This document shows positions 4,606 to 62,483 of a stretch of DNA of 64,000 nucleotides, in pieces. The stretch is from Bacteroidales bacterium (GTDB lineage Bacteria; Bacteroidota; Bacteroidia; Bacteroidales; JACABE01). Positions within the stretch are counted from its first letter, which is position 1, and every line of letters begins with the position of its first letter. The stretch is from positions 17,030-81,029 of the forward strand of contig JBBRCQ010000005.1 of NCBI GenBank assembly GCA_038204725.1, written 5' to 3'. Below the pieces are notes generated by a model. The model did not search any database. It saw only the letters and a program-made list of their open reading frames with translations, and was not told the DNA's origin. The position numbers and the translations under genes are program-made.

Positions 4606-5532
4606 TTAATTATTGTCAAATAAGGCAGTGCTTAAATAACGCTCAGCGGTATCAGGTAAAATTACAACTATCATTTTATTCATGTTTTCAGCTCGTTGAG
4701 CAACCTGAATGGCTGCCCATGCAGCTGCGCCAGAAGAAATTCCACAAAAGATTCCTTCCTGCCTGATTAGTTTTCTGGTAGTATCAATGGCATCTTCATT
4801 AGACACCTGAATGATTTCGTCAACCATCTGCATGTTTAATATATCCGGAATAAAACCGGCTCCTAATCCCTGAATTTTATGTGGCGAAGGTGAACCACCC
4901 GATAATACAGGTGATGATAGAGGTTCTACAGCTATACTTTTAAATGCTGGTTTGTATTTTTTAATGATTTCTGAAATACCGGTAATAGAACCACCCGTTC
5001 CTACACCAACTACAAGTATATCTACCTTACCATCTGTATCTTTCCAGATTTCTTCGGCTGTTGTCTTTCTATGAATTTCAGGATTGGCAGGATTCTTAAA
5101 TTGCTGAGGCATAAATGAATTTGGAATGGTGATTAATAATTCCTCTGCTTTTGCAATGGCACCTTTCATCCCTTTGGGTGCTTCTGTCAGGAATATTTCA
5201 GCACCAAAGCTTTTCAAAATGGCTCTTCTTTCTATACTCATGCTTTCGGGCATTGTTAGAATAAGCCGGTAACCTTTCACTGCACAGGTAAACGCAAGTG
5301 CAATCCCTGTATTTCCACTGGTGGGTTCTATAATAACTGTATCTTGATTTAAGAGACCTTGTTTTTCTGCAGCTTCAATCATCGCCATCCCAATTCTGTC
5401 TTTTACCGAACTGGTTGGATTAAAGAATTCCAGCTTTGCAATAACTTTTGCCGGCAAGTCCTTTGTGATTCGGTTTAATTGTACCAAAGGTGTATTTCCT
5501 ATTAGTTCACCTATATGTTTTGCTATTTTCAT
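4606..5532 (-). CDS. cysK: cysteine synthase A (O-acetylserine sulfhydrylase)
   Basis: [12 protein letters not shown] and [11 protein letters not shown] (PLP lysine motif), plus a GTGGSITG loop. The listed ORF extends to 5565, but the internal ATG at 5532 ([16 protein letters not shown]) fits the family N-terminus better. Confidence 0.9.
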
Positions 5533-5722
5533 GTTTATCAGTTTTACAATTTTATGGATTAACAATAATTCTATAAATTAGTTTATGAATCGAATAATTG
5601 TAAATATTATCTGGCAAAGGGAATCAAACATATCTATTTGAAAATAAGCATAATCAAGTAGAAATCGTTGTAAAAAACGATTCTTAAGTGTTTTATTCTG
5701 ATTGATTTTACTCAATTATTTC

Positions 5723-5925: not shown

Positions 5926-7023
5926 TTATACGTTGAAGCGGATATTCAAAATATCGCCGTCGCAAATGATATAACTTTTACCTTCAACGGCAAGTTTACC
6001 GGCTTCCTTAATCTTTGCTTCTGAAGCATATTTGAGCATATCCTCGTATTTGATTACTTCGGCGCGGATAAATCCTCTTTCAAGGTCGCTATGGATAGCA
6101 CCGGCAGCCTGAGGAGCTGTCATTCCCCTGCGAATGGTCCAAGCACGGTTTTCTTTTCCTCCAACTGTAAAAAATGAGATAAGGTTAAGCAATCGATATG
6201 CAGAACGAATCAGTTTATTCACGCCGGGTTCGGCTAAACCATAATCCTGCAAAAACGCTAAACGGTCTTCTTCGGTATCCAATGCGGCAATATCAGCTTC
6301 CAATGCACCGGCAATTACTAATACCTCTGCATTTTCATCTTTAACAGCCTCTTTAAATGTATCCACATAAGCATTTCCTTTGATTGCAGAATCTTCATCA
6401 ACATTGCATACATACATCATTGGTTTATCGGTCAACAAATACATATCGTTTACCCATTTCTTATCTTCTTCAGATATTTCCATCGTGCGAACATTTTGAA
6501 AATTTTCAAGTTGATCTTTGTATCGAGTCAGGACTTCTATCCCATGTTTAGCATCTTTATCTCCTGCTTTTACAAGTTTTTCAGTACGGAGTATTTTACG
6601 TTCAATAAGTTCCAGATCTTTAACTTGTAATTCAAGATCAATAATTTCCTTATCACGCACTGGATTGACTGATCCTTCCACATGTGGCAAATTTTCGTTG
6701 TCAAAACAACGTAAAACATGAATAATGGCATCAGTTTGACGGATATCTGCAAGAAACGCATTCCCAACACCTTCTCCCTGGTTAGAACCTTTAGCCAATC
6801 CAGGTATATCAACAATTTCAATTGTTACAGGAATTACTTTTTCTGCTTTGATTATTTTGTTCAATTCAAGTAAACGTAAATCAGGAACAGTTGCAACTCC
6901 CATATTAGATTTGTTGGTACTATAGGCAAAACTTGTAGTTTCTGCTTTCGTATTTGAAATACAATTGAATAATGTTGTTTTTCCGATATTTGTCAATCCG
7001 ATAATACCACATTTTAATGCCAT
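5926..7023 (-). CDS. ychF: redox-regulated ribosome-binding ATPase YchF
   Basis: N-terminal P-loop MALKCGIIGLTNIGKTTLFN. 365 aa with a conserved TGS-like C-terminus (DGDILNIRFNV). Confidence 0.95.
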   Translation of the reverse strand: MALKCGIIGLTNIGKTTLFNCISNTKAETTSFAYSTNKSNMGVATVPDLRLLELNKIIKAEKVIPVTIEIVDIPGLAKGSNQGEGVGNAFLADIRQTDAIIHVLRCFDNENLPHVEGSVNPVRDKEIIDLELQVKDLELIERKILRTEKLVKAGDKDAKHGIEVLTRYKDQLENFQNVRTMEISEEDKKWVNDMYLLTDKPMMYVCNVDEDSAIKGNAYVDTFKEAVKDENAEVLVIAGALEADIAALDTEEDRLAFLQDYGLAEPGVNKLIRSAYRLLNLISFFTVGGKENRAWTIRRGMTAPQAAGAIHSDLERGFIRAEVIKYEDMLKYASEAKIKEAGKLAVEGKSYIICDGDILNIRFNV

Positions 7024-7670: not shown

Positions 7671-7671
7671 G

Positions 7672-7935: not shown

Positions 7936-7982
7936 GATTAGGTTACTGTTTAATAGTTAAAATTTTAATTCTACTTCCGCTC

Positions 7983-10240: not shown

Positions 10241-10266
10241 GTTAGCTGTCTTTTTTAAGGATTAAT

Positions 10267-10377: not shown

Positions 10378-10433
10378 CACTATTCACTATTCACTCTTCA
10401 CTATTCACTCTTCACTATTCACTCTTCACTATT
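10378..10433. repeat. heptamer tandem array CACTATT/CACTCTT x8, overlapping the stop codon of the oxidoreductase gene
   Basis: Eight contiguous 7-nt units. The CDS stop (TGA, 10419-10421) and its last four codons lie inside the array. Confidence 0.95.
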
Positions 10434-13358
10434 TAAAGCTTCAAACATAATCTCCACCGGATGTAAAGCTATCCTACCTGTTCCGTCTTTAATCTGACAA
10501 CGGCAACTAGTGCCCAATGCAGCAATCGTTATCTCTTCGGATGTTGCTCTGATTGCAGGAAACAAGACCAACTCCCCTACTTTCATCGAAACTTCATAAT
10601 GTTCTTTTTCATACCCAAAAGAACCGGCCATGCCACAACATCCCGATGGAATTTCCTCTACAGAATAGTTTTCGGGAAATGCAAGCATCTTTTTACTGGG
10701 TAAAGTAGAAGCTATGGATTTTTGTTGGCAATGTCCGTGTAATTTTATTTGTTTCGTAACTTTGCTAAAGCTTTCCTTACTTATTTTTCCTTTTTCAACT
10801 TCTTTCATAAAGAACTCATCAAACATCAACGTATTTTCTGCTAATTTTAGTGTAGCAGGTTTTAATTCTTTTCCAACCAAATCAGGGTATTCATCTCTGA
10901 ATGCAAGAATGGCGGATGGCTCAATACCAATTAAAGGAGTTGTATCTGTAATAATATCTTTGAGATAAACTACATTTTGTATCGCAATTTTTTTGGCAGT
11001 TCTTAGCAATCCTTTCGAAAGATATGTTCGTCCGCTTTCAAGATGTTTTGGTACAATGGCTTCATAGCCTAATTTTTCAAGCAATCGGATTGCTTTTATG
11101 CCAATATCTGATTCATTGAAATTGGTAAACTCATCGGCAAACAAATACACTTTACCGTTTGGATATATACTTGTTAATTTGTTTTTTACAACCCATTTTT
11201 TGAATGTAATTTTCGACAATAAAGGAATAGATCTTTTTTGTGAAAAACCAAGAATTGATTTAGCAATACCTGATGTAAATGCATTGGACATCAAAAAATT
11301 AGTTACAGGTATCAGCAATGAACCCAATGCATTGATACGTGAAATATAAGCAATAGCACGTGTTCGCAAAGGAATACCATTGGCATCATAGTAATGCTGC
11401 AAAAATTCGGCTTTTAGTTTTGCTACATCAACACTTGAAGGGCATTCAGATTTACAAGCTTTACATGACAAACACAAATCGAAAACTTCGTATATTTCGT
11501 TATGATCAAACGGGTTTTTTTTAACTGAATTTGTAAGAAATTCACGCAAAATATTAGCTCTAGCCCTTGTGGTAGCATTTTCATTACGGGTTGCCATATA
11601 ACTCGGGCACATGGTGCCACCAATAATTTCCGATTTACGACAATCGCCTGAACCATTGCACTTTTCTGCTGCACGCAATATCCCTTGTTCTTTTGAAAAA
11701 TCAAAAACAGTGTCTATCTTTCTGAATTCTTTTCCTGGTTCATATCTGAGAAAAGTATTCATAGGTGGGGTATTCACGATTTTACCCGGATTAAAAATAT
11801 GATGAGAATCCCAGGTTTCTTTAATTTCCTGTATAATTTTATAATTCTTTTCACCAATCATCATTGGAATAAATTCACCTCTCAGCCTGCCATCACCATG
11901 TTCGCCACTGAGTGAGCCTTTATATTTTTTGACAAGTTGAGCAGTTTCTAATGCTATGGTATGAAACAATTCTACATCTTTTGAGTCTTTCAGGTTGAGT
12001 ACCGGACGCAAATGCAATTCACCGGTGGCTATATGCGCATAATACACACATTTTAAATTGTATTTATCGAGTATAGCTTGAAATTCATCCACATATTCAG
12101 GTAACAATAATGGATTTACAGCAGTATCCTCAATTACGGGAACTGGTTTTGCATCTCCGGGTAAGTTAGACAAAACACCCAATCCTGCTTTCCTCAAATT
12201 CCAAACCTTTTTGATATCTTCTCCAAAAATAACAGGAAAATGATAACCATATCCGGCTGCTCTCATTTCTTTTTCAAGATTTTCGGTTGCCATTGAAACT
12301 GCTTCTTCTGATTCCATTGCAAATTCAACTATAAGCATTGCTTTAGGATTACCTTGTATAAAGAAACGGTTTTTACGTTGTTCGATATTATCTTTGGTAC
12401 AATCCATAATTATATCGTCCATCAATTCAATGGCTACTGGATGATGCTTGAGTGCAATAATATTACCATATAATGCTGCTTTTAAGCTATTACAATGAAT
12501 ACAAACCACTGCAACATGCCTGGGTGGCAAAGCAACAAGATTTAGTGTAATTTCTGTTGAGAATGCCAATGTGCCTTCTGATCCTGCTAAAAGTTTGGAA
12601 AAGTTAAATGCCTTTTCATTTTCAGAAAAAGGCTGCATATCCATTAACAAGTCAATTGCATAACCTGTATTTCGACGTTCCAATGATTTATCAGGATATT
12701 GTGCAAGTATTTCTGCCCTGATTTCTTCATTGCTTAAAACTGCATTGATTTGCTGATAAATTTTATTTTCTAATGTTTGACCAGATAGTTTAGATGCAAA
12801 TTCAGTTTTATTGAGTGATTGAAAGGTTACCTCCGAACCATCACTCAAGAGTGCTTTTACTGCGAGTGTATGTTCACGTGTACTGCCATATACCAGCGAA
12901 TGGGCACCACATGAATTATTACCGACCATGCCACCTATCATACATCTGTTGGATGTAGAAGTTTCCGGACCAAAAAATAGACCTTTCGGAGCAAGAATTT
13001 TATTGAGTTCATCCAACACAACGCCGGGTTCTACTTTAACCCAACGCTCTGTTTCATTGATTTCTAGAATACGACACATATATTTTGAAACATCCACAAC
13101 AATGCCATTACCAACTACTTGCCCGGCAAGTGATGTACCGGCAGTTCGAGGAATTAAAGCTATATTATGTTTATTGGCAAATAATATAAGTAACCGGATA
13201 TCTTCTTTATCTTTAGGACGAACCACTGCAATAGGTATCTCACGATAAGCTGATGCATCCGTTGCATAAAGTAGCCGCATGGTTTCATCCGTATATATAT
13301 CGCCTTTAATTTCGTTACTTAAAGTTTGTATTGCAAGAAGTGTTTGTGATGAGTCCAT
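10419..13358 (-). CDS. FAD-binding plus (Fe-S)-binding oxidoreductase (YdiJ / GlcD-GlcF-fusion-like)
   Basis: 979 aa. N-terminal FAD-linked oxidase (PCMH-type) region, central Cys clusters (CLSCKACKSECP, CNGSGDCRKS), and a C-terminal CCG-like Cys-rich region (SGCCGMAGSFGY). Confidence 0.85.
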   Translation of the reverse strand: MDSSQTLLAIQTLSNEIKGDIYTDETMRLLYATDASAYREIPIAVVRPKDKEDIRLLILFANKHNIALIPRTAGTSLAGQVVGNGIVVDVSKYMCRILEINETERWVKVEPGVVLDELNKILAPKGLFFGPETSTSNRCMIGGMVGNNSCGAHSLVYGSTREHTLAVKALLSDGSEVTFQSLNKTEFASKLSGQTLENKIYQQINAVLSNEEIRAEILAQYPDKSLERRNTGYAIDLLMDMQPFSENEKAFNFSKLLAGSEGTLAFSTEITLNLVALPPRHVAVVCIHCNSLKAALYGNIIALKHHPVAIELMDDIIMDCTKDNIEQRKNRFFIQGNPKAMLIVEFAMESEEAVSMATENLEKEMRAAGYGYHFPVIFGEDIKKVWNLRKAGLGVLSNLPGDAKPVPVIEDTAVNPLLLPEYVDEFQAILDKYNLKCVYYAHIATGELHLRPVLNLKDSKDVELFHTIALETAQLVKKYKGSLSGEHGDGRLRGEFIPMMIGEKNYKIIQEIKETWDSHHIFNPGKIVNTPPMNTFLRYEPGKEFRKIDTVFDFSKEQGILRAAEKCNGSGDCRKSEIIGGTMCPSYMATRNENATTRARANILREFLTNSVKKNPFDHNEIYEVFDLCLSCKACKSECPSSVDVAKLKAEFLQHYYDANGIPLRTRAIAYISRINALGSLLIPVTNFLMSNAFTSGIAKSILGFSQKRSIPLLSKITFKKWVVKNKLTSIYPNGKVYLFADEFTNFNESDIGIKAIRLLEKLGYEAIVPKHLESGRTYLSKGLLRTAKKIAIQNVVYLKDIITDTTPLIGIEPSAILAFRDEYPDLVGKELKPATLKLAENTLMFDEFFMKEVEKGKISKESFSKVTKQIKLHGHCQQKSIASTLPSKKMLAFPENYSVEEIPSGCCGMAGSFGYEKEHYEVSMKVGELVLFPAIRATSEEITIAALGTSCRCQIKDGTGRIALHPVEIMFEALNSEE

Positions 13359-16147: not shown

Positions 16148-17170
16148 TTATTTTGAATTTTCTTTATAATACTTAATCATTTTTGGTAAAACATCACCCA
16201 CATTCGCTATAATTGTATAGTCTGCTATTTTATTAATAGGCGCTTTCGGATCATTATTAATAGAAATAATTTTTGCACTTTGATCCATACCTGCCCTATG
16301 CTGGACAGCTCCTGAAATTCCACAGGCAATATATAATTTAGGTCGAACGGTGATGCCGGTTTGTCCAATTTGGCGGGCATGATCAACAAGACCGGCATCA
16401 ACTGCAGCTCTTGAAGCGCCTACTTCACCTCCGATAGCTTCGGCTAACTGATAAAGCAAATCAAAATTTTCTTTGGTAGCAACACCATAACCCCCTGCAA
16501 CAATAATCTGTGCACCTTTGATATTTATTTTCTGACCTTCAATATGTCTTTCCAATATTTCTACCAAAAAATCATCTTCTTTTAAGAATTTAACAAGGTT
16601 GATTTTTTTTAATTTACCTTTATAGTTCGCATCATATATTTCCTGTTTCATCACGCCTTCTCTGACAGTAGCCATTTGTGGACGGGTATCAGGATTAATG
16701 ATGGTAGCAATAATATTTCCTCCAAAAGCAGGACGAATTTGATACAATAAATTTTTATATTCTTTTTGGGTGCGATTTTCGGTATGATTCCCAATTTCTA
16801 AACTGGTACAATCGGCTGTTAATCCACAACGCAAAGCTGAAGCAACTCTCGGGGCAAGGTCTCTGCCTACTGAAGTAGCTCCAAATATAGCAATTTCCGG
16901 TTTTTCTTCTTTAAAAAGATTTATAACAATGGATGCATGTGGCAATGTCGTGTATGGGAATAAACGTGTTTCCTGGGCCAAATGAATGACATCAACACCA
17001 TATGGAAATAATTGATTTTCGACATTTTGAATTTTATCTCCAATAACAACAGCTTCGAGTTTTATAGAAAGTTCGTTGGCCAGTTTTCGTCCTTTGGATA
17101 ACAATTCAAGACTCACGTCTGCAATTAAACCATCTTCATTAACTTCACAATAAACAAAAATATTATTCAT
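16148..17170 (-). CDS. etfA: electron transfer flavoprotein subunit alpha
   Basis: C-terminal FAD-binding motif (PKLYIACGISGAVQHRAGM), 340 aa, follows etfB. Confidence 0.9.
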   Translation of the reverse strand: MNNIFVYCEVNEDGLIADVSLELLSKGRKLANELSIKLEAVVIGDKIQNVENQLFPYGVDVIHLAQETRLFPYTTLPHASIVINLFKEEKPEIAIFGATSVGRDLAPRVASALRCGLTADCTSLEIGNHTENRTQKEYKNLLYQIRPAFGGNIIATIINPDTRPQMATVREGVMKQEIYDANYKGKLKKINLVKFLKEDDFLVEILERHIEGQKINIKGAQIIVAGGYGVATKENFDLLYQLAEAIGGEVGASRAAVDAGLVDHARQIGQTGITVRPKLYIACGISGAVQHRAGMDQSAKIISINNDPKAPINKIADYTIIANVGDVLPKMIKYYKENSK

Positions 17171-17204: not shown

Positions 17205-18077
17205 TTAACCAATGATGTGTGAACTGATAAGTTCCTGCATTAAACTTTCAATGTCTTTATCAGAATCTGTTAAAAGAATGGTTTCTTTTTGTTGCAATAT
17301 AACATTTTCAATCTTTTTAACTTTGGTGGGTGAACCCGACAATCCAAGTAATTCAAAATCAGCATCTAAATCAGCAACTGTCCATTCTTCCAATTGAAGA
17401 TAAGGTCTTTTGGTATAAAGTTCTGTGTAATCTCTGGTTTCTTCCTGTAATTCTGTCACAGTACGGGCATGTTTATGTTTCATCAGCAATTTAGCATTGC
17501 GTGGTCTACATTCAGGTGCTGAACTATGAACAGTTATAAGTGCAGGTAATGTTGATTTTACAACTTCAATACCTCTTTCAAGTCTTCTTTTGATAGTAAT
17601 TTGTGTTTCGTCAACAGAAATAACTTCTTCGGCATAGGTAATTTGAGGAATACCTAACTTTTCGGCAGTTTGTGGACCGACCTGAGCGGTATCACCATCA
17701 ATAGCCTGACGACCAGACAAAACCAGATGAAATGGAGCTAATTTTTTAACTGCTAATGAAATAGCATAAGAGGTTGCTAATGTATCAGAACCTGCAAATT
17801 TTCTATCAGTAATCAAATATCCGCAGTCAGCACCGCGGTAAATGGATTCACGGATTATTTCTGCTGCTCTGGGTGGTCCCATGGTTAAAATAATTACTTC
17901 TGCACCTTTTATTTTGCTTTTGATATGAAGTGCCATTTCCAATGCATTCAAATCTTCAGGGTTATAAATAGCAGGTAATGCAGCACGGTTTACAGTTCCG
18001 TCAGCCTTCATGGCATCTTTTCCAACATTTCTGGTATCAGGAACCTGTTTAGCTAAAACTACAATTCTAAAACTCAT
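17205..18077 (-). CDS. etfB: electron transfer flavoprotein subunit beta
   Basis: MSFRIVVLAKQVPD N-terminus and LVLSGRQAIDGDTAQVGP motif. Confidence 0.9.
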   Translation of the reverse strand: MSFRIVVLAKQVPDTRNVGKDAMKADGTVNRAALPAIYNPEDLNALEMALHIKSKIKGAEVIILTMGPPRAAEIIRESIYRGADCGYLITDRKFAGSDTLATSYAISLAVKKLAPFHLVLSGRQAIDGDTAQVGPQTAEKLGIPQITYAEEVISVDETQITIKRRLERGIEVVKSTLPALITVHSSAPECRPRNAKLLMKHKHARTVTELQEETRDYTELYTKRPYLQLEEWTVADLDADFELLGLSGSPTKVKKIENVILQQKETILLTDSDKDIESLMQELISSHIIG

Positions 18078-18887: not shown

Positions 18888-20939
18888 TTGTGGCAAAAAA
18901 AAAAAAACTTGGAATTTCAATTAACATCTGATTTTAAACCAACCGGTGATCAACCTGAGGCCATCAAGCAATTGGTAGAAGGTATTGTAAGAGGCGATAA
19001 AGCTCAAACCTTATTGGGAGTAACAGGTTCAGGAAAAACTTTTACTGTAGCCAACATCATTCAACAGGTTCAAAAACCAACGCTTATATTAAGCCATAAC
19101 AAGACTTTGGCAGCTCAGTTGTTCAGTGAATTTAAGCAATTTTTCCCTGACAATGCAGTTGAATATTTTGTTTCTTATTACGATTATTATCAACCTGAAG
19201 CTTTTATTCCATCAACCAATACTTACATTGAAAAAGACCTTTCGATCAACGCTGAAATTGAAAAATTCAGATTAAGTACCTCTTCAGCTTTACTTTCTGC
19301 AAGAAAAGATATTATAGTAGTTGCTTCTGTTTCATGTATTTATGGTATAGGAAACCCAGATGATTTTTATAGCAATATCATTGAAATCAAAAAAGGAGAT
19401 GTAATAAGCCGAAATAAATTATTGCTTGCTTTTGTCGGAAGTTTGTATTCCCGTACCGAAGCTGATTTTAACAGAGGGAATTTCAGAGTTAAAGGGGATA
19501 CTGTTGAAATATACCCTGCCTATCTTGATATTGGCTATCGTATTATTTTCTGGGGCGATGATATTGAGAGCATTGAATCTTTTGATGTTATAAATGGATT
19601 TACAATAGATGCATTTGAGGAAATTAAGATATTTCCTGCAAATATATTTGTTACTTCTCCCGATAAAGTGAAGAAAGCCATTTATGCCATTCAGGATGAC
19701 TTGGTCAAGCAAATTACTTTCTTAAAAGAAGTTGGAAAGCCACTGGAAGCCAAACGACTGGAAGACAGGGTTACATATGATCTGGAAATGTTACGCGAAT
19801 TGGGCTATTGTTCCGGTATTGAGAATTATTCAAGATATTTTGATGGCAGAGAACAGGGTTCAAGACCTTTTTGTCTGATTGATTATTTTCCCGATGATTT
19901 CTTAATGGTTATTGATGAAAGTCATGCTACCATTCCTCAGGTAAGAGCAATGTACGGAGGCGACCGTTCGCGTAAGCAAAATCTTGTTGAATATGGCTTC
20001 CGCCTACCTTCAGCTATGGATAACCGTCCTTTAAAGTTTGATGAATTTGAGGCTATGGTAAAACAAACCATATTTGTAAGTGCCACTCCTGCCGATTACG
20101 AATTACAGCTATCAGATGGGGTAGTTGTTGAACAATTAATTCGTCCAACAGGTTTGCTGGATCCAATCATTGATGTACGCCCAAGTTTGAATCAGGTTGA
20201 TGATTTATTAGGTGAAATAGAGATAGTTACAAAACGAAATGAAAGAACATTGGTGACAACCTTAACCAAAAGAATGGCAGAAGAATTGTCAAAGTACCTT
20301 ACGAATATTGGCATTCGATGCAGATATATCCATTCTGACGTTGTTACTCTGGAAAGAATTGAAATACTAAATGACTTAAGAGCAGGTAGTTTTGATGTAC
20401 TTATTGGAGTAAATCTTTTAAGAGAAGGATTGGATTTACCTGAAGTATCACTGGTGGCTATTTTAGATGCAGATAAAGAAGGTTTTTTACGTTCCGAAAG
20501 GTCTTTAACCCAAACATCGGGTCGGGCTGCACGTAACGTGAACAGCAAAGTAATTATGTATGCTGATAAAATTACGCATTCGATGCAAATGACCATTGAC
20601 TCCACTAACCGCAAACGCGAAAAACAAATTCAATACAATTTAGAAAATAATATTACACCTACAACTATAATAAGATCAAAAGATTCAGTTTTTGGACAAG
20701 TTAAAGCAGGAAATAAAAATGAAGCAAGACCCTATATTGAAAATGAATCAATTGTTATAGCTGCTGAACCGGTTCTTAATTATATGAGTAAAGATCAGCT
20801 ACAAAAAAGCTTACAATCTTTGAAAGTAGAAATGAATAAAGCGGTAAAACAACTCGATTTTATTCAGGCTGCCAAAATAAGAGATGAAATGTTTGAATTG
20901 CAAAAATTAATTGAATTAAAAAGCAGGAAAGCATATTAG
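18888..20939 (+). CDS. uvrB: excinuclease ABC subunit B
   Basis: FKPTGDQPEAI, GVTGSGKTFT (Walker A) and a C-terminal UVR domain (AAKIRDEM). No ATG is available. TTG 18888 or TTG 18909 (MEFQLTSDF) are the possible starts. Confidence 0.95.
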   Translation: MWQKKKNLEFQLTSDFKPTGDQPEAIKQLVEGIVRGDKAQTLLGVTGSGKTFTVANIIQQVQKPTLILSHNKTLAAQLFSEFKQFFPDNAVEYFVSYYDYYQPEAFIPSTNTYIEKDLSINAEIEKFRLSTSSALLSARKDIIVVASVSCIYGIGNPDDFYSNIIEIKKGDVISRNKLLLAFVGSLYSRTEADFNRGNFRVKGDTVEIYPAYLDIGYRIIFWGDDIESIESFDVINGFTIDAFEEIKIFPANIFVTSPDKVKKAIYAIQDDLVKQITFLKEVGKPLEAKRLEDRVTYDLEMLRELGYCSGIENYSRYFDGREQGSRPFCLIDYFPDDFLMVIDESHATIPQVRAMYGGDRSRKQNLVEYGFRLPSAMDNRPLKFDEFEAMVKQTIFVSATPADYELQLSDGVVVEQLIRPTGLLDPIIDVRPSLNQVDDLLGEIEIVTKRNERTLVTTLTKRMAEELSKYLTNIGIRCRYIHSDVVTLERIEILNDLRAGSFDVLIGVNLLREGLDLPEVSLVAILDADKEGFLRSERSLTQTSGRAARNVNSKVIMYADKITHSMQMTIDSTNRKREKQIQYNLENNITPTTIIRSKDSVFGQVKAGNKNEARPYIENESIVIAAEPVLNYMSKDQLQKSLQSLKVEMNKAVKQLDFIQAAKIRDEMFELQKLIELKSRKAY

Positions 20940-38996: not shown

Positions 38997-39737
38997 TTAT
39001 GCGGTTAAACGTTGTTTGATCGCTTCGTAAAGAATTACACCACAGGCAACCGATACATTTAAAGAGGCAATATCTCCTAAAATAGGAATTTTTACAATAT
39101 TATCTGTTAGTCTTAAATATTCGGGAGAAACGCCATCTTCTTCTGAACCCATTATAATTGCTGTTGGTGCAGTGTAATCAACTTTATAATGATAATCACC
39201 TCCTTTTTCGGATGCTGCAATAATTTGCAAACCACTTTTTCTTAAAAAATCAATGGTTACTTTAAGATTTTCGCTACGACAAACAGGAATGATGTGTAAT
39301 GCTCCGGCTGATGTTTTTAAAGCATCTGAATTGATTTGAGCTCCGCCTTTTGATGGAACTATAATGGCATCCACGCCTGCACATTCTGCAGTACGGGCAA
39401 TGGCTCCAAAATTTCGAACATCTGTAATCCTATCAAGTATAAGAATTAGCGGAGTTTTGCCTTGTTCCCAGATCATAGGAATTAAATTCTCAATTTGAGT
39501 ATAAGAAACAACTGACATAAAACAAGCGACACCCTGATGGTTTTTCATGGTAAGCTTGTTTAATTTTTCAAGTGGAACGTATTGAAAAGGAATGTTATTT
39601 ATCTTGATTTCATCCATTAATTCAAGAAAAATCTCACCTCGTAAACCATTCTGTATAAATATTTTGTCAATTTCTTTTCCCGATTTAATGGCTTCAATTA
39701 CAGGTCGGATACCATATATAAAGTTGTCAGTGTTCAT
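38997..39737 (-). CDS. rlmB: SpoU/TrmH-family 23S rRNA 2'-O-methyltransferase (RlmB-like)
   Basis: N-terminal substrate-binding domain (IYGIRPVIEAI) and SpoU motifs (LDRITDVRNFGAIARTAE, IIMGSEEDGVS, IPILGDIASLNVSVA). Confidence 0.85.
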   Translation of the reverse strand: MNTDNFIYGIRPVIEAIKSGKEIDKIFIQNGLRGEIFLELMDEIKINNIPFQYVPLEKLNKLTMKNHQGVACFMSVVSYTQIENLIPMIWEQGKTPLILILDRITDVRNFGAIARTAECAGVDAIIVPSKGGAQINSDALKTSAGALHIIPVCRSENLKVTIDFLRKSGLQIIAASEKGGDYHYKVDYTAPTAIIMGSEEDGVSPEYLRLTDNIVKIPILGDIASLNVSVACGVILYEAIKQRLTA

Positions 39738-39738: not shown

Positions 39739-39768
39739 GTTAAAGGTTAAAGGTTAAAGGTTAATAGG
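39739..39768. repeat. heptamer GTTAAAG x3 plus a degenerate unit, abutting the rlmB start codon
   Basis: Units at 39739, 39746 and 39753, then GTTAATAGG. Starts 2 nt from the start codon. Confidence 0.9.
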
Positions 39769-47104: not shown

Positions 47105-47141
47105 TAATTTAGTTATTGATTAATAGTTATTATTTTATACA

Positions 47142-47239
47142 GTTACTGAGCTTTTGCTCAGTCCCGAGCTACAATTTCTTACGAAGTATGAGTTAGAAAT
47201 TGTTATTCGGGAAAGTATGAGTTAGAAATTGTTATTCGG
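47142..47239. repeat. compact copy of the dispersed repeat: leader hairpin, one 28-nt-type unit, two 29-nt units
   Basis: 47156-47239 matches 7765-7848 with one mismatch, including the identical 49-nt hairpin CCCGAGCTACAATTTCT-15 nt-AGAAATTGTTATTCGGG (47163-47211 matches 7772-7820). Confidence 0.95.
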
Positions 47240-47249
47240 TATTAAGTTA

Positions 47250-47909
47250 TTATTGAACGAATAGTAAGCTGCCTATTCTCACCATTGTACTACCTTCTTC
47301 TATAGCTATTTGATAATCACCTGACATTCCCATTGAAATTTCTTTAAAAAATGTTTGATCACTAAAGATTGCTATTTTTAGTTTTTCATAAAAGGTTTTA
47401 AGTTGTGCAAATTCCTGATGAATAAGTTGATAATTTGAAGTATAAGTAGCCATTCCCATTACACCAACAATTCTGATATTTTGCATTTCTTTAAATTCTT
47501 TAGCATTTAACATTGCTAAAGCCTCTTTTAAATCAAACCCAAATTTACTTTCTTCGGTAGCAATATAAAACTGCAATAAGCAATCAATAACTCTATTATT
47601 TTTTTGGCCTTCTTTATTAATGACAGTCAATAATTTAGCGCTGTCTACACTATGTATTAAATGAATAAAAGGAGTTATATATTTTACTTTATTGGTTTGC
47701 AAATGACCAATAAAATGCCATTGAATGTCTTTTGGTAAAACATCGTATTTTTCAGCTATTTCAAGGGCTTTGTTTTCTCCAAAAATTCGTTGACCTGCAT
47801 GATATGCTTCTAAAATGGCATCAATAGGTTTTGTTTTGGATACAGCAACTAAAGCTACATTTCCGGGAATATGTTTAAGAATATTTTCAAGATTGTGTTT
47901 TATACCCAT
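47250..47909 (-). CDS. yggS: YggS-family pyridoxal-phosphate homeostasis protein
   Basis: VALVAVSKTK (PLP lysine), HFIGHLQTNK and MGMSGDY motifs. Confidence 0.9.
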   Translation of the reverse strand: MGIKHNLENILKHIPGNVALVAVSKTKPIDAILEAYHAGQRIFGENKALEIAEKYDVLPKDIQWHFIGHLQTNKVKYITPFIHLIHSVDSAKLLTVINKEGQKNNRVIDCLLQFYIATEESKFGFDLKEALAMLNAKEFKEMQNIRIVGVMGMATYTSNYQLIHQEFAQLKTFYEKLKIAIFSDQTFFKEISMGMSGDYQIAIEEGSTMVRIGSLLFVQ

Positions 47910-52706: not shown

Positions 52707-53771
52707 TTATTCTTGTGATTTTTTATCAACATTCAGTTTAAAATAAGAAACAGGCTGTAAGATTGTATTAAATACATAATATTGTATATACACAAAATCT
52801 TTATCGTCATTTACTAAACCATAAAAACGATCTCTGTCGATAATGATTGGTTCATGTGTAATATCATCAACAGCTCCATATTCGGCTAATTTTAAAAATG
52901 CCTTTAACGTTATCTGTTTTCCGGTTATATCGGTAACTGTTAGAATCGCCATAGGTTTATGAGAAGTTATTGAATCTTTATCACTTTTTTTCAAATCATT
53001 CAAAAAAGACTCAAAACCCAGATTGGAAAAAGAACTCATATATTCTACTACTTTCATGGTGTCAAAGTTATTCATTAATTTATCAGATGCCAATAGTTTA
53101 ATCTCAAAATCTTTATTATTACGAGAAATTTCAAAGGAAGATTCAGGAGCGGCAGGATACTCAATCTTTACAGATTTAATATCACCGATTTTAAGTTCAA
53201 AAATAACACGTTTACGCCAATCACCATCAAATGCGGTATAACGAGGTGAAAGAAAACCCCGAAAACCTGGTACATATACGATAAATGGTTCTTCAGAACC
53301 TTGTTCTAACATAAAAGTACCTTGATTATCCTGTGTTTCATCACCAACATAGTAAACTTTTGTACATTTTTCGTGAGGAAACAATTTTATTTTATTGAAT
53401 AAATCAATTCGGTAAACCATTTGATAGATTTCTACTTTTACACTTTTAGCAGCCAGCCATTTTATGATAGTATTTCTTCCGGCTATTGAAACCGGCTCTT
53501 TTACTTTCAAATTAGAAATTGTTTCCAATAAAATAGCTATTCCATCTTTACGGGCTGGATATTTATCGTTCACTTTCCAATTTTCATCTCCAATTCGCAC
53601 AAGTGTTACGGTATTATTGCTTTTATCACTCATAAATATTTTAGTGATTGATGAAACATCTTTTACAGCAAAATCAGCTTTTATCGTAGATTTGGAACTT
53701 TTCAATATAAATACCAATGCTACTATTGCAAGTACGATTGTTACAATTAATATATATTTATTTTTATGCAT
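52707..53771 (-). CDS. DUF4340-domain protein (GldG-associated)
   Basis: Single N-terminal TM helix and the conserved position directly downstream of gldF-gldG. Confidence 0.65.
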   Translation of the reverse strand: MHKNKYILIVTIVLAIVALVFILKSSKSTIKADFAVKDVSSITKIFMSDKSNNTVTLVRIGDENWKVNDKYPARKDGIAILLETISNLKVKEPVSIAGRNTIIKWLAAKSVKVEIYQMVYRIDLFNKIKLFPHEKCTKVYYVGDETQDNQGTFMLEQGSEEPFIVYVPGFRGFLSPRYTAFDGDWRKRVIFELKIGDIKSVKIEYPAAPESSFEISRNNKDFEIKLLASDKLMNNFDTMKVVEYMSSFSNLGFESFLNDLKKSDKDSITSHKPMAILTVTDITGKQITLKAFLKLAEYGAVDDITHEPIIIDRDRFYGLVNDDKDFVYIQYYVFNTILQPVSYFKLNVDKKSQE

Positions 53772-53779
53772 TTTTTGCT

Positions 53780-53820
53780 GTTAGTTAATGGTTATTAAGT
53801 TATTGAGTTATTTGAATAAC
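53780..53820. repeat. degenerate GTTATTnA-type octamer repeats near the DUF4340 gene start
   Basis: GTTAGTTAATG GTTATTAA GTTATTGA GTTATTTGAATAAC. The last part is a palindrome, GTTATT-TG-AATAAC. Confidence 0.7.
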
Positions 53821-53945
53821 AAATAATCAGTTTTTTGAAAAGTTTATTTTGAATAATTATGAACTTAATGAACTTATTAAATCCCGAATAATGTCTCTCG
53901 ATAAGAGGCAAAGCTTAGTTTAATGAACTTTTCGAAATTTATAAA

Positions 53946-58453: not shown

Positions 58454-59794
58454 ATGAAAAAATACATTTTAATTTTTATACTGATTTTTCTTTATTTACC
58501 TCATTTAGCTATAAGCCAGAAAACCAGAGAATTTCATTTGTTTGACAACTGGTCATTCAACGTGAATGGTGGTGCCAGCCTTTTTTGGGGTGATCTTAGA
58601 GAATACAAATTTTATCCTGTCAATAATTATGAAAGTGAAAGAAATCTAGCTTATGGATTTGTGCTTTCCAAACAGCTAAATTCTATTTTCCATATTCGCG
58701 GTCAACTTATTAAAGGAAACTTATCCGGTACAAGAAGAACTTTAAATAGCTATTTTAATGCTGAATTTAATGAATATATTGTTAATGCTACTATTGATTT
58801 CAGCAGAATCATTTTTGGAGATAAACCAGATAGAAAATTAACCATGTATGGCATAGGAGGTATAGGTTTTATTGATTTCAGATCTTTAAAAAAAGAATTA
58901 GTTAGCAATAAATATATCGACAGTCGTGGATATACCATAAATGGCAGCTTAAAAGAAAGCCATAAAATGGTAACAGAAACCATTATTCCATTTGGCTTTG
59001 GAGTTAAATACAATTTAAGTTCAAGATTAGCACTCAATTTTGAAAATATTTGGTCTATTGCAAATACAGACTTTATTGATGTGAGTGGAGCTAATAATTT
59101 TGACGTAAATTCAGGCGGATTTAAATATGATTTTTTAACCTATACTTCATTTGGACTTACATTTAAATTTTCACAATCAGAAAAGGAAAAGAAGATTCCA
59201 TTAATTGAACCTACTGATGAAATTACAGAAGATGAGCCAATTGAAATAATTAAAAATGAATCAAAAAATACCGAATCAGAAATAAAAACAGAGACAAAAG
59301 ATATAGAAACAGCTGTAAAAGATGATTCAGAAACAATTGAACCAGTCAAAATAATTAAAGCTGAACCCAAAACTACGGAACCTGAGATAAAAAATGAGAC
59401 AAAGCATATAGAAACGGTTTTAACAGATGAATCGAAAGCAATTGAAACAACGCTAATAATTAAAAATAAAATTGCTGAAAAGCCGGAATTTGATTATGAG
59501 TTCAGAGTTCAGGTATTTGCTTCATTTTTTAAAGCAAATATGCGTTTTATCAAAAAATATAATATTTCTGAACCAATTACAGAGGATTTCAACGGTGTAT
59601 TATACACCTATTCAGTAGGTTCATTTAAAACATATACTGAAGCTAAAGCAAAAGCTTATCAATTGATTACTGAGAACAAAGCGTATGGTGCATTTGTTAT
59701 TGGAATAAAAGGAAACAAACGACTTTATTCATTAATTGAATTGCTTTCGAACGAAGAAAAAGCTGCATTGAAAGTTTCATCTAAAAAAAAATAG
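58454..59794 (+). CDS. outer-membrane beta-barrel protein with an acidic tandem-repeat linker and a C-terminal SPOR-like domain
   Basis: The N-terminal half is paralogous to 7983..8825. A 35-aa unit is repeated twice in the linker. The C-terminus (FRVQVFASFF...YSVGSFKTYTEAKAKA) is SPOR-like. Confidence 0.7.
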   Translation: MKKYILIFILIFLYLPHLAISQKTREFHLFDNWSFNVNGGASLFWGDLREYKFYPVNNYESERNLAYGFVLSKQLNSIFHIRGQLIKGNLSGTRRTLNSYFNAEFNEYIVNATIDFSRIIFGDKPDRKLTMYGIGGIGFIDFRSLKKELVSNKYIDSRGYTINGSLKESHKMVTETIIPFGFGVKYNLSSRLALNFENIWSIANTDFIDVSGANNFDVNSGGFKYDFLTYTSFGLTFKFSQSEKEKKIPLIEPTDEITEDEPIEIIKNESKNTESEIKTETKDIETAVKDDSETIEPVKIIKAEPKTTEPEIKNETKHIETVLTDESKAIETTLIIKNKIAEKPEFDYEFRVQVFASFFKANMRFIKKYNISEPITEDFNGVLYTYSVGSFKTYTEAKAKAYQLITENKAYGAFVIGIKGNKRLYSLIELLSNEEKAALKVSSKKK

Positions 59795-59993: not shown

Positions 59994-62483
59994 TTAAAAC
60001 GCTACAACCAACTTAAGATTTAATTGACGGGGTGTTAAATAATTAGGAACTGCATATTGACGATTGCTAACATCACTAATCCAGATATAAGAAATCGTAT
60101 TGCTGATTTGCAATAAATTAAAAACTTCAAGACTGATCCAAATTGTTTCTAAATTGCGAAAAATATTTTTGGATGAAAGCTTAGCTGTTTTACTTTTTAA
60201 TAGATACGAAGATCCAATATCCACTCTCCGGTAAGCAGGAATTCTGAGTGTCTGTTTGTATCTAGGAGAATTAGGTGGTCCAAAAGGAAGACTTGCTCCA
60301 AAAACTAAGTTTAAGTGCATTTTTATATTTGGAATTCTAGGCAAATAATCCTGAAAAAACAAATTAAAAACAACGCTCTGATCGGTGGGACGGGGAATGT
60401 ATCCTGGTTCAATGATGTTCCCTTTACTATCGATATAACTATCATTATCAATATCTTCCTGTGTTTTCATGATTGACAAACTTGCCCAGGATTCAATACC
60501 TTTCACAAACTCTCCGTTTAATCTGAAATCAATACCTGTAGCATATCCATGTGCTTCATTTTTAGCTGCATATCTGATACGTACATTATCTATTTCATAT
60601 GGAATTAAATTGTTCAGGAATTTATAATAAATTTCCGAAACAAATTTAAATGGTCGGTTCCAGATCGTCAGATTCCAATCCATACCTGTAACAAAATGTA
60701 TAGATTGTTGAGATTTGATGGCTTTATTAAGATTTCCTTCTCTGTCTCTTAATTCCCTGTAAAATGGTGATTGATAGTAAATACCTGTTGAAAACCGGAG
60801 TAATATGTCCTTTTCCCATTTTGGCTTATAAGAAATTGTAGCTCTTGGACTCACCAACATTTCTTTATTCAAATCCCAATAACTAAAACGAATTCCGTAT
60901 GTTAAAGACAATCTGTTACTATCCCCGTCTATTGTCCAGGTATCCTGAATAAAACCTGAAATACGGTTGGATGACAAATCATTTCTTGCTTTATATACAT
61001 TTTGTAATTCAGGTGCGTAATGTGGAGGAATAGAATCACCAATAGCATCAGGATGAAAAGGTAATGAAAAATCGGAAGAATCTACTAATTTCCATTCATT
61101 TAATTTGTCAGTTATTTGTTCCCTTTGATATTTGGCACCCCATTGGAAAAAATGATAAATTTTAGCAACAGAACCTCTGTTTTCAAAATTCATAACAGTA
61201 GCATTCAGATAGTTACGTGCATGATCGATATAAGTTCCTACTCCTCGATTGAAAGATTCCTGTGCAAAATTTTCTTTACCAAAATCAGCTTCCAATTGAT
61301 ACAACCAGTATTGTCCCTGGATATCAAAAGTTTCATCTTCATACGATTGAAAAACTGAGATGGTATTTTTAATATTTACATATACGAATGGCTTATAATT
61401 AAGTGACAATGCTCCAAAATAGGTTTCAAATTTATCAAATTCCTGTCCGTCGAAATAAATTTTCAACCTTAACGCCTCATTAATAGTTCCAAAGTCTGTT
61501 TCACGATTTTCTGGTACTACATTGTATATATTTCGAGCATAATTACCTAAGAAGGATAATTCCAATTTTTCATTGATATCGTATGTTAAAAGTGATTGCA
61601 CATCCGTAAAGGAAGGACGGTATTCTCCTTTAGTTTGCATTGAGTTTAAAAGATATTGGTTTGATTTTTGCCGCACACCAATTAAATAACTTAAACGTGA
61701 TTTTAATGCTGTACCTTCTAAATGCATGTTAGCTCCTAATAAGCTCATAGAAACACTTCCAGCAAAAACAGTTGGCTTTTTATATTTTATATCCAATACT
61801 GAAGACATTTTATCGCCATAGCGTGCATCAAAACCTCCAGCAGAAAACAAAATAGATGATACCATATCAGAGTTTACAAAACTCAATCCTTCCTGCTGAC
61901 CGGAACGTACCAGTAATGGACGGTAAATTTCAATATCATTTACATAAACTAGATTTTCGTCGTAATTCCCACCTCTAACATTGTATTGTGAACTTAATTC
62001 GTTGTTGGAACTAACACCTGGCATGGTTTTAATAATCGATTCCACTCCACCTGATACGCTGGGAATTTGTGTAACATTCTTAGGATCGAGACGGGTAAAA
62101 TTTGTTGTTCTCACAACCTTATCCTGAATAACAAATTCAGGCAACTGAGTTGTAATTTCTTTTAATCTGAAATTGATTTCTTTGGTTTCACCTGGAGTGA
62201 GTATCAGCTTATTTGTTTGAGATTCAAATCCAGTAAATGAAGCAACAATAGTAATTTCGGTATTGGCGGGAATGGTGAATATAAATTTACCATTACGGTC
62301 GGTTGAAGTTCCAATTGGAATTGGAATATTAAAAACTCCTACATTTACAAATTCTAACGGATTGTTCCTTTCATCGGTAATTTTGCCAATTATTTTGGCC
62401 TTTTCCTGTGCAGAGGTCTGACCTTGAAATAAGGAAAAAATTATACAGTGTATGAATAAATAAATGAGTTTTTTAGTTGTCAA
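59994..62483 (-). CDS. TonB-dependent receptor with an N-terminal CarboxypepD_reg-like domain
   Basis: Signal peptide, IIGKITDERNNPLEFVNV (CarboxypepD_reg), plug motifs (GVESIIKTMPGV, NVRGG), an 829-aa barrel, and a terminal F. Confidence 0.8.
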   Translation of the reverse strand: MTTKKLIYLFIHCIIFSLFQGQTSAQEKAKIIGKITDERNNPLEFVNVGVFNIPIPIGTSTDRNGKFIFTIPANTEITIVASFTGFESQTNKLILTPGETKEINFRLKEITTQLPEFVIQDKVVRTTNFTRLDPKNVTQIPSVSGGVESIIKTMPGVSSNNELSSQYNVRGGNYDENLVYVNDIEIYRPLLVRSGQQEGLSFVNSDMVSSILFSAGGFDARYGDKMSSVLDIKYKKPTVFAGSVSMSLLGANMHLEGTALKSRLSYLIGVRQKSNQYLLNSMQTKGEYRPSFTDVQSLLTYDINEKLELSFLGNYARNIYNVVPENRETDFGTINEALRLKIYFDGQEFDKFETYFGALSLNYKPFVYVNIKNTISVFQSYEDETFDIQGQYWLYQLEADFGKENFAQESFNRGVGTYIDHARNYLNATVMNFENRGSVAKIYHFFQWGAKYQREQITDKLNEWKLVDSSDFSLPFHPDAIGDSIPPHYAPELQNVYKARNDLSSNRISGFIQDTWTIDGDSNRLSLTYGIRFSYWDLNKEMLVSPRATISYKPKWEKDILLRFSTGIYYQSPFYRELRDREGNLNKAIKSQQSIHFVTGMDWNLTIWNRPFKFVSEIYYKFLNNLIPYEIDNVRIRYAAKNEAHGYATGIDFRLNGEFVKGIESWASLSIMKTQEDIDNDSYIDSKGNIIEPGYIPRPTDQSVVFNLFFQDYLPRIPNIKMHLNLVFGASLPFGPPNSPRYKQTLRIPAYRRVDIGSSYLLKSKTAKLSSKNIFRNLETIWISLEVFNLLQISNTISYIWISDVSNRQYAVPNYLTPRQLNLKLVVAF

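Follow-up and report, generated by a model that had tools for sequence, protein, structure and literature searches.

BOX elements of Streptococcus pneumoniae have the arrangement boxA-boxB(n)-boxC, in which the complementary outer modules pair into a stem-loop; they are co-transcribed with neighboring genes and have no transposase of their own. IS1397 and ISKpn1 are autonomous insertion sequences, equipped with a transposase, that insert into REP/BIME sequences, and the STRR heptamer tracts are short tandemly repeated repetitive sequences of cyanobacteria. REP units are imperfect palindromes of 20-40 nt, with tens to hundreds of copies in a genome. In REP sequences, the palindrome bears GTAG (or CGTC) as an unpaired tag at one of its ends (PMC3733652). 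Within the Bacteroidota, BrickBuilt and PgRS/MITE464 of Porphyromonas gingivalis are exclusively intergenic elements; each begins with a leader, continues as a minisatellite with a variable number of 23- or 41-nt repeats, and ends in a tail, and the ~10-20 copies per genome are confined to one species group (PMC4596501).

The DNA analyzed here, a stretch of 64,000 nt (hereafter the window), comes from an uncultured low-GC Bacteroidota genome. Our best reading of the repeats described below is that they constitute a previously undescribed family of a familiar kind, that is, a small modular repeat like MITE, BOX and BrickBuilt elements.

Results

The original prediction had posited a dispersed modular repeat family with variable module number. 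In agreement, we found three copies in the window, denoted locus 1 (7623-7948), locus 2 (10280-10433) and locus 3 (47111-47254), and at least two diverged copies on other contigs, giving at least five documented copies. The general layout is an 8-mer tract (GGTTATTN)n, followed by a 7-bp leader hairpin, one to four left-arm units of 28 nt, a loop, and two to five right-arm units of 29 nt in inverted orientation, with the left junction always falling after GTTA(C/G). The 20-nt leader core GAGCTTTTGCTCAGTCCCGA is present three times in the window (at 7673, 10342 and 47148), always on the + strand, and was not matched in any of 100 dinucleotide-preserving shuffles. The arm motif gave 13 matches with up to three mismatches, compared to 0.45 expected, and 12 of these are inside the three loci. 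Elements are ~100-320 nt in size, below the limit of ~600 bp for MITEs, and apart from frame-cycling read-through of the 28-nt array they contain no ORFs. All three gaps are bordered by minus-strand ORFs, which are housekeeping genes, and the element has the same orientation in each, so the proposed placement between co-directional minus-strand genes holds for all three loci.

At locus 3, a degenerate 8-mer tract (AGTTATTG / ATTAAT / AGTTATTA / TTTTATAC / AGTTAC; 47111-47146), recognized in the three-locus alignment, directly precedes the start codon of the Na/Pi cotransporter gene (47104) when read on the gene (minus) strand, with AATAAC motifs at -27 and -13 relative to this codon. The leader hairpin (ACTGAGC-TTTT-GCTCAGT, 7-bp stem; 47145-47162) is predicted to fold with -10.3 (+) and -9.7 (-) kcal/mol (z ~ -4.9), and its 3' half doubles as the start of the first 28-nt unit. 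The core hairpin that follows (47162-47212, identical to 7771-7821) comprises the left arm TCCCGAGCTACAATTTCT (47162-47179), a 15-nt loop region (47180-47194) and the right arm AGAAATTGTTATTCGGGA (47195-47212). The 18-nt arms are 83% complementary, and this 51-nt inverted unit doublet folds with -20.7 (+) and -17.8 (-) kcal/mol (z -6.2 and -5.4). A second 29-nt unit (47213-47240; TRF period 29, 1.9 copies, 100% matches), made up of the linker AAGTATGAGTT and a right arm, AGAAATTGTTATTCGGT, that matches the arm motif, forms the right end of the element. TRF and the unit table thus bear out the predicted content of one 28-nt-type unit and two 29-nt units. We also considered AATAAC as a general upstream motif, which was rejected given that it is found within 60 nt of only 9 of 52 genes.

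Locus 1 is an expanded version of the same structure. Its 8-mer tract, (ATTAGGTT)x6 at 7623-7670, or (TAATAACC)n on the gene strand, abuts the aroK start codon at 7624, and is followed by a leader hairpin (AGTGAGC-TTTT-GCTCAGT; 7670-7687) in which a C-to-G change breaks one stem pair. The predicted sharing of the leader by copies starting at 7666, 10336 and 47142 was correct in that all three loci have it, but the 26-nt leader of locus 1 begins at 7667 and carries one mismatch (G for C). TRF delineated a left array of 3.9 units of 28 nt (GCTCAGTCCCGAGCTACAATTTCTCGAC; 7681-7788, 96% matches), and a loop plus right array of 5.0 units of 29 nt (AAGTATGAGTTAGAAATTGTTATTCGGGA; 7789-7937), counts that come from a short-read MAG in which mis-assembly is possible. 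The two arrays, with 20 inverted-repeat pairs, fold as one long nested hairpin. As had been noted, 47156-47239 and 7765-7848 differ by a single mismatch (83 of 84 bases shared; C at 47159 versus A), and the 49-nt hairpin at 47163-47211 has no differences from 7772-7820. These near-identical stretches (99%) are 39 kb apart and have unrelated flanks.

Locus 2 is a partial copy. An 8-mer tract, (GTTATTGA)x6 followed by (GTTATTAG)x2 (10280-10344, TRF), precedes the gene for cytochrome c peroxidase (TTG start at 10240) when read on the gene strand. Alignment and motif matches place the leader hairpin and one variant left arm (CCCGAATTACAATTTTC) at 10339-10373. Where right arms would be, there is an unrelated 7/14-nt array, (CACTCTTCACTATT)x4 (10378-10433, TRF), which overlaps the stop codon of the FAD-oxidase/Fe-S gene (10419-10421), and neither a right arm nor the core hairpin is present at this locus. 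The original count of three full copies therefore becomes three loci sharing the leader, of which two are full and locus 2 is truncated.

Evidence for copies outside the window came from two spurious ORFs in a public protein collection, P0121 and P0122, which translate diverged copies on contigs of 172,135 and 83,765 bp. Residues 58-76 of P0121 are 100% identical to the translation of 47157-47213, and the peptides point to unit periods of 39 nt and 22 nt for these copies. A phmmer search with P0121 against 1.84 billion representative proteins returned only P0121, P0122 and two unrelated repeat proteins. Exact scans for the 20-nt leader gave one chance match (a Blastocatellia MAG) in the species-representative genome collection and three chance matches, all in coding DNA, in the JGI metagenomes; the family therefore is absent from those collections or too diverged for an exact 20-mer. 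A right-arm scan of viral contigs found one chance 17-mer only, plasmid and phage sequences had no blastn match to the element, and Rfam gave none in the window at the gathering threshold. Within the window, a 16-nt exact match to the left arm at 60829-60844, inside a TonB-dependent receptor gene, was treated as a probable coincidence.

A further concern is that collapsed or chimeric repeats in the short-read MAG produced the element. Logan contigs of SRR19962012, probably the same reads, end inside the elements, as expected for a tangled assembly graph, but these contig ends join the same element ends to the correct flanking genes. In addition, the three loci each have different specific flanks, and the same modules recur in independent ORFs from the two other contigs. 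We consider an assembly artifact extremely improbable; at most, the unit counts alone are uncertain. The contig breaks were also considered as a sign of high copy number, which was rejected given that other Logan contigs stop within ordinary coding DNA as well, and the copies within the window suffice to account for the breaks at the elements.

The 8-mer tract, which was overlooked in the original prediction, is a separate and older feature than the hairpin element. A solo tract, (GTTATTNN)x3, is found at 53789-53812, upstream of the gene at 52707..53771(-), with no leader or arms (10252-10301 and 53761-53812 match with 79% identity), and in one relative (L015) the tract alone, without the element, is at the ortholog of locus 2 (6770-6815). 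These two instances establish that the tract is independent of the hairpin element. In another relative (L014), AATAACTATTAA is retained upstream of the orthologous Na/Pi start.

We compared the orthologous gaps in four to five related genomes that retain the gene order (loci L010, L012, L013, L014, L015 and L017), a presence/absence check that the original prediction had called for. All three sites are empty in the relatives: the OMP-to-aroK gap is 358 nt here versus 67, 42 and 99 nt, the FAD-oxidase-to-CCP gap 178 nt versus 123, 54 and -4 nt, and the YggS-to-NaPi gap 145 nt versus -4, -4, -4 and 56 nt. No leader or arm sequence was detected in any relative locus, nor were comparable dispersed repeats. 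Since the relatives' gaps are short and without leader or arms, and one has the tract alone, the hairpin element appears to be a lineage-specific addition to pre-existing tracts. The relatives are distant, with flanking genes of 62-81% amino-acid identity, so the comparison is between species, not between strains, and the empty sites document lineage-specific gain, not recent transposition.

The original prediction also described short direct repeats at the flanks of the elements. These are present at loci 1 and 3, but their status as target-site duplications is confounded by the 8-mer periodicity. At locus 3, the 10-nt repeat AGTTATTATT (10/10) lies at 47125-47134 and at 47245-47254, the right copy overlapping the YggS-like stop codon (47250-47252), at offsets of 11 and 4 nt from the element ends. 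It occurs nowhere else in the window, and 31 of 5000 shuffles of the flanks produced an exact repeat as long as this one. The exact repeats flanking locus 1 are no longer than 8 nt, a length that 580 of 5000 shuffles also gave; ATTAGGTTA (9/9) adjoins both ends of the element, and an 8-mer-like unit in the right flank, ATTAGGTTACTG (7937-7948), is a direct repeat of ATTAGGTTAGTG at 7662-7673 with 11 of 12 bases shared. The element boundaries implied by the direct repeats disagree between the two loci. Because the repeats are inside, or similar to, the periodic 8-mer tract, they are ambiguous as target-site duplications.

We evaluated whether the element could be of the REPIN/REP type, moved by a RAYT or IS200/IS605-like Y1 HUH transposase that would recognize the hairpin on single-stranded DNA and insert it 3' of a short target, for example TTAC at the junction of GGTTAC and TGAGC. 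The core is an inverted-arm doublet that forms a hairpin, as in REPINs, the left junction is constant (GTTA(C/G)), and REPs mostly follow coding regions, in gaps flanked by unidirectional or convergent ORFs (PMC3733652). All copies also have one orientation, although for three to four copies this is statistically uninformative. GTAG is found on the minus strand of every left unit, which had led to the suggestion of a resemblance to RAYT-mobilized REP elements that could be coincidental; CGTC is present too. The resemblance was not supported: GTAG falls within the long stem, in an internal 3-nt mismatch, instead of forming an unpaired end tag, CGTC is in the linker, and a given tetranucleotide is expected in a 28-nt unit approximately one time in five by chance (an estimate). 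On its own, a 28-nt unit does not qualify as a significant palindrome, folding with only a 4-bp stem at -4.4 and -5.2 kcal/mol (z -0.1 and -2.1). The copies are also flanked by direct repeats, and IS200/IS605-type transposition makes none. Finally, the search for a RAYT or IS200/IS605 Y1 HUH gene that had been proposed found no Y1_Tnp/RAYT gene, nor a transposase of any other kind, in ~74 kb of this genome. Mobilization of a REP-type element by such an enzyme thus seems doubtful. Doubtful to a slightly greater degree is an active, target-specific hairpin transposon that homes to AATAAC-type tracts 3' of GGTTA(C), is mobilized in trans by an HUH/Y1 (RAYT- or IS200/IS605-like) enzyme, and has arms that expand independently into head-to-head arrays tuning intercistronic mRNA structure; if true, REPIN-like systems would extend beyond the Proteobacteria in which they are usually found, and this one would have a defined microsatellite as its target.

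With respect to transcription, the Bacteroidota -7 promoter box TAnnTTTG precedes the OMP, FAD-oxidase and YggS genes but is missing from the element-bearing gaps. From this distribution, we infer that the element most likely is transcribed inside a polycistronic minus-strand mRNA. No sigma-70-type promoter-like or terminator-like sites were predicted inside the elements, and roles as an intrinsic terminator or sigma-70 promoter were rejected on this basis. In the transcript, the element would form a stable intercistronic hairpin (-18 to -79 kcal/mol) that separates gene pairs overlapping or no more than 123 nt apart in the relatives, and might affect mRNA stability or translational coupling, by analogy with REP/BIME and BOX elements.

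The elements could instead be a multi-copy family of small RNA genes on the + strand, antisense to the flanking genes. Bidirectional promoter activity has been reported for BrickBuilt elements (PMC4596501), and the + strand folds better both for the whole element at locus 3 (-49.8 versus -28.4 kcal/mol; z -8.8 versus -5.6) and at locus 1 (-105 versus -79). However, the extra + strand stability is mostly due to G-U pairs in a G+T-rich strand, and there is no promoter-like or terminator-like site on this strand in or beside the elements. Additionally, nothing relevant was found in Rfam for 7400-10700 even at E<=10, and the variable unit number and truncated locus 2 disfavor a defined RNA product. 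An sRNA family is very improbable.

Another explanation is that the element is not mobile, the modules having arisen in place and then been carried from one 8-mer tract to another by recombination or gene conversion, with selection retaining them as intercistronic RNA or DNA structures (an mRNA stabilizer, attenuator or protein-binding array, as proposed for BIMEs). The upstream 8-mer tract to which every copy is tied could provide homology for conversion, and the strong hairpins, the constant position and orientation relative to genes, and the host gaps devoid of promoter boxes, which would put the element inside an mRNA, are all compatible with selection for structure. Nevertheless, the neighboring genes have unrelated functions (aroK, cytochrome c peroxidase, Na/Pi transporter), and the element is dispensable at all three sites in the relatives. 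Two sharply bounded copies that are nearly identical despite a separation of 39 kb fit recent copying better than they fit structural selection, and the stems of loci 1 and 3 have the same three-base mismatch in every left/right arm pair, with no compensatory change. Although not implausible, spread of a non-mobile structure is unlikely.

Discussion

The element probably is a lineage-specific, non-autonomous, MITE-like modular repeat. Its core consists of the 7-bp leader hairpin and, after it, two inverted arms of ~18 nt that pair into a ~50-nt hairpin. Copies would have been inserted at the distal border of AATAAC-type 8-mer tracts already present in the short gaps in front of some genes of this clade. 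Thereafter, the 28-nt left units and 29-nt right units each could be gained or lost, presumably via replication slippage, such that left units run in one direction, right units in the other, and unit numbers differ from locus to locus; locus 2 would have lost its right half. Mobility would be provided in trans by an enzyme encoded elsewhere. Counting against the MITE-like reading, no transposase was found in ~74 kb of this genome, and the inverted arms are not strictly terminal, as the 18-nt leader hairpin lies outside the left arm with no inverted leader copy at the right end.

Few modular intergenic repeats are known in the Bacteroidota, and the present ones add to them a new family that is restricted to one lineage. 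They break short-read assemblies at their sites, yield spurious ORF calls such as P0121 and P0122, and could serve as strain markers by virtue of unit-number variation. Operon expression may change, since the element splits gene pairs that overlap or are tightly spaced in the relatives. We do not propose a new class of biology unless a dedicated mobilizing enzyme or a regulatory role is demonstrated.

The analogy with IS1397 and ISKpn1 is limited to target choice, with the present non-coding element apparently using the 8-mer tract as its target, judging from five junctions. The 7-8-nt intergenic tracts, (GGTTATTN)n, (CACTMTT)n and (GTTAAAG)n, are similar to STRR tracts in size and location, but differ in phylum and sequence, and the present tracts are directly upstream of start codons on the gene strand, with one conserved at an orthologous site. 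As for REP/BIME/REPIN sequences, inverted pairs of short units form hairpins, plausibly also in RNA, and are found in mosaic arrays between unidirectional genes and with GTAG (PMC3733652), whereas the present units are not palindromes, same-orientation units are in tandem rather than alternating, and GTAG is internal. BOX elements likewise are modular intergenic repeats with variable internal module number and complementary parts that form a stem-loop, but belong to another phylum, differ in sequence and vary only in the middle module, while here both complementary arms are amplified.

The likeness to BrickBuilt/PgRS is in architecture only: both are short, non-coding, intergenic elements of Bacteroidota with a leader, a variable tandem array without spacers and a tail, and annotation pipelines call spurious ORFs through both. 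There is no sequence similarity, and the IS5-type terminal inverted repeats of BrickBuilt (GAGACCTTTGCA / TGCAAAGGTCTC) are absent at the present loci; with up to two mismatches, these repeats gave three matches in the window, none near the elements, compared to 3.7 expected. The leader is 18 nt here, whereas that of BrickBuilt can reach 285 nt. BrickBuilt arrays a single type of repeat, all facing the same way; the present element has two partly complementary unit types arranged head-to-head that give one nested hairpin, and, unlike BrickBuilt, is attached to 8-mer tracts.

A dispersed modular repeat family

Comparison of the window with itself identified three loci (7623-7948, 10280-10433 and 47111-47254; loci 1 to 3) as the sole substantial dispersed non-coding repeats, supporting the original prediction of a dispersed modular repeat family. 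As had been claimed, 47156-47239 differs from 7765-7848 at only one of 84 bases (47159), and the 49-nt hairpin at 7772-7820 recurs without differences at 47163-47211. The 20-nt core of the common leader, GAGCTTTTGCTCAGTCCCGA, is present on the + strand at 7673, 10342 and 47148, compared to no matches in 100 dinucleotide-preserving shuffles, and the arm motif (≤3 mismatches) was matched 13 times versus 0.45 expected, with 12 of the 13 matches inside the three loci. While the leader is at all three copies, the 26-nt leader at locus 1 begins at 7667 rather than 7666 and has one mismatch. The description of three full copies also needs amending, as locus 2 is truncated: its leader is followed by a single variant left arm and then by an unrelated 7/14-nt array in place of the right arm. 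This array, (CACTCTTCACTATT)x4 at 10378-10433, covers the stop codon (10419-10421) and final codons of the 979-aa FAD-oxidase/Fe-S gene. A 16-nt exact left-arm match, GAGCTACAATTTCTTA, at 60829-60844 (~22/26 with flanks), on the coding strand of a TonB-dependent-receptor-like gene (59994..62483(-)), is probably due to chance.

In + strand order, an 8-mer tract, (ATTAGGTT)x6 at locus 1, (GTTATTGA/GTTATTAG)x8 at locus 2 and degenerate at locus 3, precedes a leader hairpin (ACTGAGC-TTTT-GCTCAGT, 7-bp stem) whose 3´ half doubles as the beginning of the first left unit. Left units of 28 nt, each with the left arm TCCCGAGCTACAATTTCT, are separated by a loop from right units of 29 nt, each with the right arm AGAAATTGTTATTCGGGA, after which there is one more 8-mer-like unit (ATTAGGTTACTG at locus 1, ATTAAGTTATTATT at locus 3). 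The numbers of left (1-4) and right (2-5) units are provisional and need long-read confirmation, since the window is from a short-read MAG and the elements interrupt Logan contigs that probably derive from the same reads. Complementarity between left and right arms is 83%, with an identical 3-nt internal mismatch in every pair. The innermost arm pair is predicted to fold with -20.7 kcal/mol (+ strand) or -17.8 kcal/mol (- strand), and the entire locus 1 as a nested hairpin built from successive pairings of a left with a right unit (-105 and -79 kcal/mol, respectively).

Further copies on other contigs

Scans for the 20-nt leader, in collections that lack the source genome, gave a single chance match in 185,579 species-representative genomes and three, all in coding DNA, in JGI metagenomes; plasmid, phage and viral searches gave nothing or chance matches only. 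Since none of the three + frames of the 28-nt array is closed by a stop codon, we used its translation as a query against 5.8 billion predicted proteins, which returned two small, spurious ORFs, P0121 and P0122, from two other NCBI contigs (172,135 and 83,765 bp, compared to 106,319 bp for the contig that holds the window). These are plainly translations of other copies of the element, with nucleotide details as implied by the peptides. P0121 reads GYWVTELF, corresponding to GGTTATTGGGTTACTGAGCTTTT, then QSRAAISYEV and, in frame, three units of 13 residues, LSPEPQFLDAKRQ, from which a left unit of 39 nt is implied. The stretch after these, LSPELQFLTKYELEIVIRE, matches translated 47157-47213 at every residue (100%), and the terminal VRNCYSG implies a right-unit period of 22 nt. 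P0122 has the same core, and its right side, MVNGVIG, is consistent with GGTTAATGGNGTTATTGG, another 8-mer tract. Thus the family numbers five or more copies spread over three or more contigs, a lower bound given that the protein route sees only copies called as genes, and varies in unit length as well as number. An exhaustive phmmer search with P0121 found no ORFs beyond these two.

Genomic context and predicted transcription

The window (G+C ~31%) carries a housekeeping gene set of an anaerobic Bacteroidota-like organism. For the flanking proteins, the nearest database entries are MAG-derived, carry the labels Bacteroidota, Bacteroidetes or Bacteroidales, and are only 62-81% identical, indicating a poorly sampled lineage. 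All three elements lie between minus-strand genes: the beta-barrel OMP gene and aroK (358-nt gap, locus 1), the FAD-oxidase/Fe-S (FADox) and di-haem cytochrome c peroxidase (CCP) genes (178 nt, locus 2), and the YggS-like and Na/Pi cotransporter (NaPi) genes (145 nt, locus 3). On the gene strand, the upstream stop codon is followed by right units, left units, leader, 8-mer tract and the downstream start codon.

The Bacteroidota -7 promoter box, TAnnTTTG, was found upstream of 22 of 52 window genes, including the three upstream partner genes, but in none of the three element-bearing gaps, from which we infer that the elements are transcribed within polycistronic mRNAs. Inside the elements, neither sigma-70-like promoters nor sites resembling intrinsic terminators were predicted. 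A role as intercistronic RNA hairpins, in mRNA stability or in uncoupling neighbouring cistrons in the manner of REP/BIME and BOX elements, would be plausible.

Orthologous sites and the 8-mer tracts

Gene order (ETF-ETF-ACAD-x-FADox-CCP-OMP-aroK-YchF and SBP-YggS-NaPi) is kept in relatives, where the gaps are 67, 42 and 99 nt for OMP to aroK, 123, 54 and -4 nt for FADox to CCP, and -4 nt (three loci, two or three genomes) and 56 nt for YggS to NaPi; these empty sites come from distant relatives (62-81% protein identity), and few element copies are sampled. Neither leader or arm sequence nor comparable dispersed repeats were detected in ~130 kb of relative DNA. At 47250-47280, the YggS-like protein ends RIGSLLFVQ*, compared to RIGSSIFGERNY... 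(RIGSSIFGERNYxxx*) in relatives, where the gene has a 4-nt overlap with the NaPi start codon; in the window, its 3´ end seems to have been remodelled at the position of the element.

The 8-mer tract also occurs alone. In one relative (L015), the locus-2 ortholog (6770-6815) has the gene-strand tract CCAATAAT CAATAAAT CAATAACT CAATAGC CAATAAC CAATAAC, equivalent to (CAATAACN) ~6 times, without the hairpin element, and a single TCAATAAC lies upstream of aroK; in another (L014), AATAACTATTAA is retained upstream of NaPi. Within the window, a solo tract, (GTTATTNN)x3 at 53789-53812, upstream of gene 52707..53771(-), has the proximal TTAATGGTTATT in common with the tract at locus 2 (52 nt, 79% identity). 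Given these occurrences, the tract predates the hairpin element and exists independently of it in upstream spacers, and the leader and arms were added later, in a lineage-specific manner, at the distal edge of the tract.

About 70 nt beyond the solo tract, TCCCGAATAATGTCTCTCGA (53881-53900) bears a weak likeness to the left unit and may be the relic of an element. This genome repeatedly has short tandem tracts immediately before start codons, as for a 7-mer array, (GTTAAAG)x3.7 at 39739-39764, adjoining the start codon of gene 38997..39737(-). L014 has (AGTTATAA/AGTTTTTAA)n at 20815-20905, upstream of a 1234-aa Fe-S/molybdopterin gene, and 8/9-mer tracts upstream of genes look like a clade-wide trait.

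Origin of the copies

Copies that are nearly identical within unrelated flanks and have sharp boundaries in common, together with empty orthologous sites and a specific host-sequence association, point to a discrete element copied into new sites. Differences in unit number within and between copies would reflect replication slippage in the 28/29-nt direct repeats. Direct repeats adjoin both ends of locus 1 (ATTAGGTTA, 9/9) and flank locus 3 (AGTTATTATT, 10/10, which occurs nowhere else in the window and was equalled in 31 of 5000 shuffles), but they are inseparable from the periodic 8-mer tract and imply different boundaries at the two loci, and are therefore at most candidate target-site duplications. 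No transposase of any kind is encoded in ~74 kb of readable DNA. The suggested REPIN/RAYT affiliation, drawn from a GTAG tetranucleotide, was not supported: a lone 28-nt unit folded into no significant palindrome, GTAG lies inside the stem, and one tetranucleotide in 28 nt is unremarkable.

Other repeats were noted. In a third relative (L012), a 41-nt minisatellite (x5.4, CGATATGATCTCACGGCGACCGTGAAGGTTTAATGAGTTCT, 17610-17830) contains a CACGG..CCGTG palindrome, shows no sequence relationship to the window's element and lies ~480 nt from gene 16496..17131, which has a weak Transposase_mut match. A G+C-rich hairpin in the window, CCCGTCGGG-N9-CCCGACGGG (5741-5767), lies in the 360 nt that separate 4606..5565(-) from 5926..7023(-); the ends of two Logan contigs overlap at this point, and the window has no second copy of the hairpin. 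A 446-aa ORF without a Pfam match, 58454..59794(+), includes 2.1 tandem copies of a 105-nt repeat (76% matches, 59244-59467).

Comparison with known repeat families

Among described elements, the BrickBuilt and PgRS MITEs of Porphyromonas gingivalis come closest. They have a minisatellite of 23 or 41 nt between a leader and a tail, and are intergenic and species-restricted, with ~19 copies (PMC4596501). These, however, have IS5-type terminal repeats, for which we searched the present loci and found none, and one repeat type rather than two. The modular logic is in common with BOX elements, and the inverted-unit hairpins and position between unidirectional genes with REP/BIME/REPIN sequences (PMC3733652). 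What sets the element apart from all of these is the head-to-head arrangement of two complementary unit types, each tandem-amplified, and the attachment to 8-mer tracts. The element is thus a new family among a known kind of repeat rather than a new kind.
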